Of a stretch of DNA of 64,000 nucleotides, positions 32,899 through 34,355 are shown one piece after another; within the stretch, counting starts at the first letter, position 1, and each line of letters begins with the position of its first letter. The position numbers and the translations under genes were made by a program. Where the stretch lies: NCBI RefSeq assembly GCF_024223415.1, contig NZ_CP100500.1; one strand, written 5' to 3'. The notes below the pieces were generated by a model. It ran no database searches. It was not told the origin of the DNA and was given only the letters and a program-made list of their open reading frames with translations. The stretch is from Escherichia coli (GTDB taxonomy: Bacteria > Pseudomonadota > Gammaproteobacteria > Enterobacterales > Enterobacteriaceae).

Positions 32899-32957
32899 GC
32901 TATGATTAGCCGCTATTTTTTTGTCCTGAATGATGTTTGACACTACCGAGGTGTACT

Positions 32958-34355
32958 ATTTTTACCCGAGTCGCTAATTTTTGCCGCAAGGTGCTAAGCC
33001 GCGAGGAAAGCGAGGCTGAACAGGCAGTCGCCCGTCCACAGGTGACGGTGATCCCGCGTGAGCAGCATGCTATTTCCCGCAAAGATATCAGTGAAAATGC
33101 CCTGAAGGTAATGTACAGGCTCAATAAAGCGGGATACGAAGCCTGGCTGGTTGGCGGCGGCGTGCGCGACCTGTTACTTGGCAAAAAGCCGAAAGACTTT
33201 GACGTAACCACTAACGCCACGCCTGAGCAGGTGCGCAAACTGTTCCGTAACTGCCGCCTGGTGGGTCGCCGTTTCCGTCTGGCTCATGTGATGTTTGGCC
33301 CGGAGATTATCGAAGTTGCGACCTTCCGTGGACACCACGAAGGTAACGTCAGCGACCGCACGACCTCCCAACGCGGGCAAAACGGCATGTTGCTGCGCGA
33401 CAACATTTTCGGCTCCATCGAAGAAGACGCTCAGCGCCGCGATTTCACTATCAACAGCCTGTATTACAGCGTAGCGGATTTTACCGTCCGTGATTACGTT
33501 GGCGGTATGAAGGATCTGAAGGACGGCGTTATCCGTCTGATTGGTAACCCGGAAACGCGCTACCGTGAAGATCCGGTACGTATGCTGCGCGCGGTACGTT
33601 TTGCCGCCAAATTGGGTATGCGCATCAGCCCGGAAACCGCAGAACCGATCCCTCGCCTCGCTACCCTGCTGAACGATATCCCACCGGCACGCCTGTTTGA
33701 AGAATCGCTTAAACTGCTACAAGCGGGCTACGGTTACGAAACCTATAAGCTGTTGTGTGAATATCATCTGTTCCAGCCGCTGTTCCCGACCATTACCCGC
33801 TACTTCACGGAAAATGGCGACAGCCCGATGGAGCGGATCATTGAACAGGTGCTGAAGAATACCGATACGCGTATCCATAACGATATGCGCGTGAACCCGG
33901 CGTTCCTGTTTGCCGCCATGTTCTGGTACCCACTGCTGGAGACGGCACAGAAGATCGCCCAAGAAAGCGGCCTGACCTATCACGACGCTTTCGCGCTGGC
34001 GATGAACGACGTGCTGGACGAAGCCTGCCGTTCACTGGCAATCCCGAAACGCCTGACGACATTAACCCGCGATATCTGGCAGTTGCAGTTGCGTATGTCC
34101 CGACGTCAGGGTAAACGCGCATGGAAACTGCTGGAGCATCCTAAGTTCCGTGCGGCTTATGACCTGTTGGCCTTGCGAGCTGAAGTTGAGCGTAACGCTG
34201 AACTGCAGCGTCTGGTGAAATGGTGGGGTGAGTTCCAGGTTTCCGCGCCACCAGACCAAAAAGGGATGCTCAACGAGCTGGATGAAGAACCATCACCGCG
34301 TCGTCGTACTCGTCGTCCACGCAAACGCGCACCACGTCGTGAGGGTACCGCATGA
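32958..34355 (+). CDS. pcnB: poly(A) polymerase I
   Basis: Track ORF begins at TTG 32937; no in-frame ATG until codon 59. Known pcnB initiates at a non-canonical AUU, which here is codon 8 (ATT at 32958, giving 465 aa); GTG at 32991 is another candidate. Confidence 0.92.

Follow-up and report, generated by a model that had tools for sequence, protein, structure and literature searches.

Comparative evidence for the AUU start codon of pcnB, encoding poly(A) polymerase I, in an Escherichia coli genome and its relatives

Introduction

Poly(A) polymerase I (PAP I), the product of pcnB, marks RNAs for degradation and governs how many copies of ColE1-type plasmids a cell maintains. The enzyme is present at approximately 30–50 molecules per cell, and when deregulated to excess it adds poly(A) to tRNAs and is lethal (PMC3561954). 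That pcnB starts at AUU was established experimentally by Binns and Masters (2002, Mol Microbiol 44:1287), as cited in several later works (PMC2939334, PMC3561954, PMC4447247, 10.1101/063800). According to these citing papers, the N-terminus of the K-12 protein lies at the AUU codon, and replacing AUU with AUG raises expression. The promoter and start assigned by Liu and Parkinson lie downstream of the true AUU start (PMC2939334). It has also been suggested that pcnB homologues in many Proteobacteria may likewise start at AUU (PMC3561954). A literature search for initiation-site ribosome profiling of pcnB returned passing citations only.

The closest described system is infC, which encodes initiation factor IF3 and is the only other confirmed AUU-initiated gene of E. 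coli; infC and pcnB are the only confirmed cases of non-canonical starts in this species (Hecht et al., 10.1101/063800). Initiation at AUU reaches 1–2% of that at AUG (Hecht et al., 10.1101/063800), IF3 discriminates against AUU (PMC5499595), and in both genes the AUU codon restricts expression through IF3. The two genes differ in the regulatory consequence. In infC, IF3 represses its own AUU codon in a feedback loop, whereas PAP I is not known to take part in choosing start codons; the AUU of pcnB would therefore be a fixed attenuator or a passive reader of the IF3 level rather than an autoregulator. They also differ in distribution, since AUU or AUC starts of infC have been reported in all bacteria (PMC5499595), whereas the ATT of pcnB was found here in Enterobacteriaceae, Aeromonas and some distant homologues and had given way to ATG at 45% protein identity. 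A rare ATT start likewise attenuates protein production from ebpA of Enterococcus faecalis (PMC4447247), although that gene, its organism and its pathway are unrelated to pcnB.

Here, we describe the pcnB start region in a 64,000-nt stretch of an E. coli genome (hereafter, the window) and compare it with those of K-12, other Enterobacteriaceae and more distant bacteria.

Materials and Methods

All coordinates are positions in the window, and all features discussed lie on the + strand. The family-level alignment comprised 81 sequences, namely the window and 80 species of Enterobacteriaceae represented by species-representative genomes (86–100% protein identity). For the Shine–Dalgarno energies, the 20 nt upstream of each candidate start codon were paired with the 3′ end of 16S rRNA. 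More distant homologues were collected by an exhaustive profile-free search followed by inspection of the DNA.

Results and Discussion

Gene identity and correspondence with K-12

The pcnB coding sequence occupies 32958..34355 (465 codons plus TGA), and its identity was clear from protein models and from its match to K-12. The product scored 997.1 bits against the NCBIfam PcnB equivalog NF008634 (cut-off, 702), with residues 1–464 covering profile positions 1–468 of 469 and profile position 1 aligned with residue 1 of the ATT-initiated protein. The three Pfam domains of the family (PF01743, PF12627 and PF12626), namely PolyA_pol (residues 62–193), PolyA_pol_RNAbd (220–280) and PolyA_pol_arg_C (338–457), were all detected far above their cut-offs, which corresponds to the three-domain architecture of a head domain, an RNA-binding region and an arginine-rich C-terminus. 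The PAP I structures 3AQK to 3AQN matched residues 28–442, and scores against models of CCA-adding enzymes fell far below the cut-offs of those models.

The protein showed no amino acid differences from K-12 PAP I, and the 1398-nt coding sequences differed at eight third positions, all synonymous. Poly(A) polymerase activity would be expected from this 100% identity with the characterised K-12 enzyme. In a comparison with the K-12 pcnB 5′ region, which the earlier note had suggested, the arrangement proved to be conserved: the 201 nt centred on the start were 100% identical between MG1655 and the window, and K-12 pcnB (b0143) shares the Shine–Dalgarno sequence, the ATT and the TTG and GTG decoys described below, with no difference at the start site. 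The gene order dksA-gluQ-pcnB-folK in the window is that of the K-12 and AR_0085 annotations, which places pcnB in the orthologous position. RefSeq gives b0143 as 157729..159126 (1398 nt, 465 codons), starting at the ATT equivalent to 32958, and the PGAP annotation of the closest genome uses the same ATT. A 601-nt query across the start matched 5424 of 5426 complete E. coli genomes, the best at 99.8% and K-12-type strains at ca. 98.5%.

Candidate start codons and ribosome-binding sites

Upstream of pcnB, the gluQ reading frame ends at the TGA at 32896-32898, and the pcnB frame itself is closed by an in-frame TGA at 32931..32933. The codons that follow in this frame are TGT, TTG (32937..32939), ACA, CTA, CCG, AGG, TGT, ACT and ATT (32958..32960), and a further ten codons separate the ATT from a GTG at 32991..32993, which is codon 12 (Val) of the ATT-initiated frame. 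The ATT is the sole near-cognate codon in frame from the upstream stop to this GTG. The listed reading frame opens at the TTG and extends over 32937..34355, so that its product would be 472, 465 or 454 residues long depending on whether TTG, ATT or GTG is used. It is closed by the TGA at 34353-34355, which overlaps the folK start codon in an ATGA at 34352..34355. The first in-frame ATG (33111..33113) is the 59th codon if counting begins at the TTG and the 52nd (Met52) if it begins at the ATT.

The positions of the TTG, ATT and GTG and the run of 58 codons lacking ATG had been given in the earlier note, and all were correct on re-reading. Its heading, that pcnB has no canonical in-frame start, needs rewording: the absence of ATG holds, but bacteria use TTG and GTG as canonical start codons, and each occurs here in frame. 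More precisely, what the pcnB start region lacks is an ATG, or any canonical codon backed by a ribosome-binding site. The absence of ATG is not unusual in itself, as the chance of 58 codons without one is approximately 0.4, or (63/64)^58. The signal that departs from chance is instead the position of the ATT behind a strong Shine–Dalgarno sequence, together with its invariance.

This Shine–Dalgarno sequence, GAGGTG at 32948..32953, ends 4 nt 5′ of the ATT. The calculated duplex energy for the ATT was −9.8 kcal/mol (GAGGUG at −10 to −5), a value equalled by only about 2% of the sampled window positions. Energies at the rival codons were far weaker, with no Shine–Dalgarno sequence at the TTG (−2.3 kcal/mol) or the GTG (−0.1 kcal/mol) and a weak one at the ATG at 33111 (−4.0 kcal/mol). 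The locus thus has two features of AUU-initiated genes of the infC/pcnB class, an ATT at a working distance from a Shine–Dalgarno sequence and the absence of a better-supported canonical start. The weakness of the codon is probably offset by the strong Shine–Dalgarno sequence, which would also set the site of initiation.

The calculated strength stands in discrepancy with the secondary literature, in which the pcnB ribosome-binding site is termed "poor" (e.g., PMC3561954), whereas the Shine–Dalgarno sequence computed here is strong and near-optimally spaced.

The folding of the initiation region was also considered. Its predicted structure is, if anything, less stable than that of shuffled sequences (z = +1.24; 182 of 200 shuffles were at least as stable), and low structure of this kind would be anticipated where ribosomes load. 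A small hairpin pairing the Shine–Dalgarno sequence (CG-GGUG) with codons 3–4 (UACC-CG) appeared in the minimum-free-energy fold and was dropped as a candidate in view of this result. By eye, its pairing is absent in Aeromonas and in the homologue L085, and both arms are invariant in Enterobacteriaceae, which leaves no variation in which to look for covariation. An Rfam scan of 32700-33250 yielded no RNA family even at E ≤ 1.

Conservation of the start region in Enterobacteriaceae

The codon aligned with the ATT was ATT in all 81 sequences, and the GAGGTG motif was equally invariant. At the species level, 5416 of 5424 E. coli genomes shared exactly the same 70 nt around the ATT. Single-base variants of this 70-nt query carrying ATG or ATC in place of ATT occurred in no E. 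coli genome, and the one variant 70-mer inspected from the remaining eight genomes had a C-to-T change at −2 and kept the ATT.

These data bear directly on the TTG at 32937, where the open frame has its first canonical codon and where a purely mechanical ORF finder places the start. If translation began there, a 472-residue protein would be made. The TTG is present at −21 in 27 of the 81 sequences and is replaced by ATG in two Salmonella subspecies (29/81 together), but it is absent in the other 52. In 43 sequences the stretch from the upstream stop to the ATT is devoid of canonical in-frame codons, and in some Enterobacteriaceae the in-frame stop lies just 15–18 nt 5′ of the ATT, and a conserved start at the TTG is therefore excluded. 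Moreover, the alignment 5′ of the Shine–Dalgarno sequence shows divergence with indels and no codon periodicity, and the seven extra codons of the longer frame merely read through the Shine–Dalgarno sequence (AGG TGT ACT). RefSeq does not use this codon. Given also its lack of a ribosome-binding site, we consider initiation at the TTG in the window highly improbable.

The GTG at 32991 required closer consideration. Under this alternative, PAP I would be a 454-residue protein and the 33 nt from the ATT to the GTG would be an untranslated leader. The GTG is a canonical codon, it is kept as GTG/Val in all 81 sequences, and the stretch between the two codons is conserved beyond coding need, as a regulatory leader might be. 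In addition, the PAP I core was crystallised without residues 1–27, which indicates that the protein can fold without its N-terminus. Conservation alone does not decide against codon 12; other features of the locus do so, judging from its sequence. The GTG has no Shine–Dalgarno sequence within 20 nt, and the GAGGTG lies 38 nt upstream of it. It also falls within an N-terminal peptide that is fully conserved in the 81 sequences. Five alignment columns vary in codons 1–12, and all five are synonymous third positions, a pattern that argues for translation of this stretch, although the argument draws on five sites in all because codons 2–12 are so conserved. Published work has likewise preferred AUU over a downstream start (PMC2939334), and the homologues described in the next section weigh further against the GTG.

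Start codons in more distant homologues

Beyond Enterobacteriaceae, the combination of ATT and a Shine–Dalgarno sequence was recovered at successively lower protein identities. In Aeromonas hydrophila (L083, CP043324; 67% identity), GAGGTG-tacc-ATT is followed by the peptide F-S-Q-I-A-N-F-C-R-K-V. Two homologues at 62% identity have the same motif: one, from a 1.08-Mb genome (L084), is annotated from an ATT preceded by GAGGTG, and in the other (L085) GAGGTG-tatt-ATT lies in frame 12 codons 5′ of the GTG chosen by the caller and is followed by L-K-R-I-T-Q-L-Y-R-S-L. At 55% identity (L086), GAGGAT is followed after 6 nt by ATT ATT ACA, with the peptide I-T-K-V-I-N-L-Y-H-R-L.

Across these homologues of 55–67% identity, the N-terminal peptide has conservative replacements, an intact frame and a retained ATT. 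The persistence of this peptide upstream of codon 12 is difficult to reconcile with an untranslated leader. Furthermore, L084 has GTC and L086 has TTA at codon 12 although both keep the ATT, and the same type of basic, hydrophobic N-terminal peptide occurs in more distant homologues whose start is a canonical ATG. Taken with the missing ribosome-binding site, these observations leave a start at the GTG with a very slight chance, and initiation at the ATT is again the preferred reading.

In L087 (48% identity), the GTG chosen by the caller is part of an AGGTG motif, and an ATC located 6 bases 3′ of this motif aligns with the E. coli ATT; initiation in this homologue may be at AUC. At 45% identity (L089), the gene begins with ATG followed by ATT, and the phylogenetic point of a switch from AUU to AUG rests on such single examples. 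Conservation of the ATT among orthologues therefore covers all 81 sequences of the family alignment, A. hydrophila, three homologues at 55–62% identity and at least 5416 of 5424 E. coli genomes. The pairing of a Shine–Dalgarno sequence with AUU, or possibly AUC, extends to Aeromonas and more distant lineages, and there it is systematically missed by automatic callers.

Constraint on the first codons

Codons 2–13 (32961..32996) form a conserved N-terminal module. In the 81 sequences, protein conservation was 100% over residues 1–13, 65% over the linker (residues 14–32) and 96% over the catalytic core. Conservation here is also pronounced at the nucleotide level, with a synonymous codon entropy of 0.18 bits in codons 2–12 compared with a gene mean of 0.96, the lowest of 454 windows of 11 codons. 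Because synonymous diversity is lowest there, the pcnB initiation region appears to be constrained at the nucleotide level to about +33, beyond what coding requires. Among the neighbouring genes of the same loci, folK and gluQ have no such 5′ dip, and dksA has one (0.01 vs. 0.58 bits; rank 1 of 140).

Part of the conservation of codons 2–12 could thus reflect a constraint on the RNA rather than on coding. This constraint may represent fine tuning of the AUU-dependent initiation site or an unrecognised binding site. A second cis-acting layer over the first codons, such as a sequence bound by a protein or small RNA, or a context that couples PAP I output to the IF3 level or growth rate, is a tentative proposal that we consider rather unlikely, as is a function of the peptide itself.

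Upstream promoter-like island and a possible truncated product

A promoter scan of 32500-33200 returned a single promoter-like match, at 32878..32906 in the 3′ end of gluQ. It resembles a sigma-70 promoter, with a −35 element TTCTCA, a 17-nt spacer and a −10 element TATGAT. The −10 element is followed by the G+C-rich TAGCCGC and then by a T-run (island 32901-32920), and the block TATGAT-TAGCCGC-(T/A)ATTTTT was retained in virtually all of the 81 family sequences and also in Aeromonas, at 42–183 nt from the ATT. As summarised in PMC2939334, the promoter pB is placed upstream of the ATT, and the promoters p1, p2, pS1 and pS2 have also been described. The element at 32878..32906 is probably the published pB promoter.

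Of these promoters, pS1 is relevant to the choice of start codon. This promoter, located downstream of the ATT, drives transcription in vitro with the sigma-S holoenzyme (PMC2939334), and Nadratowska-Wesolowska et al. (2010; PMC2939334) raised the possibility that its transcript yields an N-truncated PAP I. Such a protein, which would begin at the ATG at 33111 and comprise 414 residues, would add to the AUU-initiated product rather than replace it. Western blots with anti-PAP I antibodies showed two bands (PMC2939334), in keeping with this proposal. On the other hand, the Shine–Dalgarno sequence of the ATG is a weak AAGGUA very near the codon, the authors themselves call the isoform unproven, and pS1 requires special conditions (PMC2939334). 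Residue 52 is Leu in 57 of the 81 Enterobacteriaceae sequences, so that an isoform starting at Met52 cannot be a conserved feature. We regard an additional truncated product as improbable, and if it exists it would be a minor product specific to E. coli.

Proposed initiation mechanism

Translation of pcnB in the window almost certainly starts at the AUU at 32958. The annotation, the identity with K-12, the findings of Binns and Masters (2002) as relayed by citing papers and the comparative data all agree with the earlier note in this respect, with a product of 465 residues. That note had also listed the TTG and GTG as alternatives; both are present in frame, and the comparative data favour the ATT over either.

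The mechanism can be outlined as follows. The invariant GAGGUG at 32948-32953 would position the 30S subunit over the AUU 4 nt downstream, where initiator fMet-tRNA would pair with just the first two bases of the codon, leaving a mismatch at the third position. IF3 destabilises such complexes, and initiation would be lowered to about 1–2% of the AUG level, a reduction of approximately two orders of magnitude. The cell would thereby contain no more than some tens of molecules of PAP I, which is toxic in excess. The product would be a 465-residue protein that starts with (f)Met-Phe-Thr-Arg-Val, the AUU being read as fMet through the initiator tRNA. We infer that this mechanism operates in the present strain because its start-site sequence is identical to that of K-12. 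The view that the AUU keeps PAP I scarce, also put forward in the earlier note, is in agreement with the published K-12 work, and sequence identity extends it to this strain.

Conclusions

The AUU start of pcnB has been known since 2002 and is already annotated in RefSeq, and in terms of discovery the present finding adds nothing beyond these sources. The analysis does hold a lesson for annotation, in that mechanical ORF callers mis-start pcnB, at the TTG in the window and at other decoys in Aeromonas and distant homologues. The conservation measured here extends the published account of pcnB without changing it. With just one other AUU start confirmed in E. coli, pcnB serves as a textbook illustration of how a dangerous protein is limited at the step of translation initiation.

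Conserved 5′ end of the pcnB coding region

Among the 81 Enterobacteriaceae sequences, comprising the window and the corresponding loci of 80 species, the 12-residue peptide encoded by pcnB codons 2–13 (window 32961–32996), directly after the ATT start codon at 32958, was 100% conserved. It was followed by a variable linker (residues 14–32) with 65% identity. The conservation extended to the nucleotides, as the codons of this peptide formed the minimum of synonymous variation in the entire gene (0.18 vs. 0.96 bits of synonymous codon entropy in 11-codon windows), and folK and gluQ from these loci lacked a comparable synonymous dip at the 5′ end. 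A second synonymous trough in pcnB, at codons 33–40 (window 33054–33077, approximately 0.31–0.41 bits), falls after the ATT and before the first ATG, in the region to which pS1, an internal sigma-S promoter, has been assigned in the literature (PMC2939334). Separately, in dksA, synonymous sites were essentially invariant across 61 sequences in codons 2–12 (window 31483–31515), the first 11 after the ATG (0.01 bits vs. a gene mean of 0.58; ranked first of 140 windows).

Upstream of the ATT, the Shine–Dalgarno sequence GAGGUG (window 32948–32953) showed no variation in any of the 81 sequences. Its computed pairing with the 3′ end of 16S rRNA was strong (−9.8 kcal/mol) and its spacing near-optimal, which is at odds with the label “poor” applied to the pcnB ribosome-binding site in passages of the secondary literature (including PMC3561954).

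Promoter-like sequences and decoy start codons

Further upstream, a conserved promoter-like island (window 32878–32925) spans the gluQ stop codon and comprises a −35 element (TTCTCA), a −10 element (TATGAT), the G+C-rich TAGCCGC and a T-run. The island, which is probably the published pB promoter, was retained in essentially all 81 sequences and also in Aeromonas hydrophila CP043324, where two copies were present (L083, 1380–1500), and its distance to the pcnB ATT varied from 42 to 183 nt. The upstream in-frame TTG at 32937, a decoy start codon, also makes up the first half of a perfect TTGACA hexamer (32937–32942). No acceptable −10 element was found 16–18 nt downstream of this hexamer, and a single occurrence in the stretch is within chance expectation. 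In Salmonella enterica subsp. diarizonae and arizonae (L022 and L023), the E. coli TTG is replaced by an in-frame ATG that precedes the ATT (position 1501) by 21 nt, with no obvious Shine–Dalgarno sequence in front of it; this codon could easily mislead automatic annotation. Above the gathering score, only two Rfam matches were obtained in the window, both on the minus strand: the t44 sRNA (3123–3209, 83.5 bits) and the HtrA 5′ UTR thermometer (11366–11411, 77 bits).

Start codons called in distant homologues

Gene callers missed the ATT in distant pcnB homologues. The called start was a TTG 13 codons upstream of the ATT in A. hydrophila (L083, 1501), a GTG 12 codons downstream in L085 (1501; 62% identity) and an ATG 27 codons upstream in L086 (51; 55% identity). 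In L087 (48% identity), the called GTG (1144) lies within an AGGTG Shine–Dalgarno sequence, six bases downstream of which is an ATC that aligned to the E. coli ATT. L089 (45% identity) carries an ATG and then an ATT. In addition, the A. hydrophila gene (1501–2998) was called as two separate ORFs (316 and 150 aa); since the tail of the first is out of frame, the split is due to a frameshift or to an error in the assembly.

Overlap of pcnB and folK

At the 3′ end of the gene, the stop codon of pcnB overlaps the start codon of folK within an ATGA (window 34352–34355), and the aligned folK start in other species was GTG in 30 of 72 loci. The overlap suggests that folK is translationally coupled to pcnB, a gene that is itself very poorly translated.
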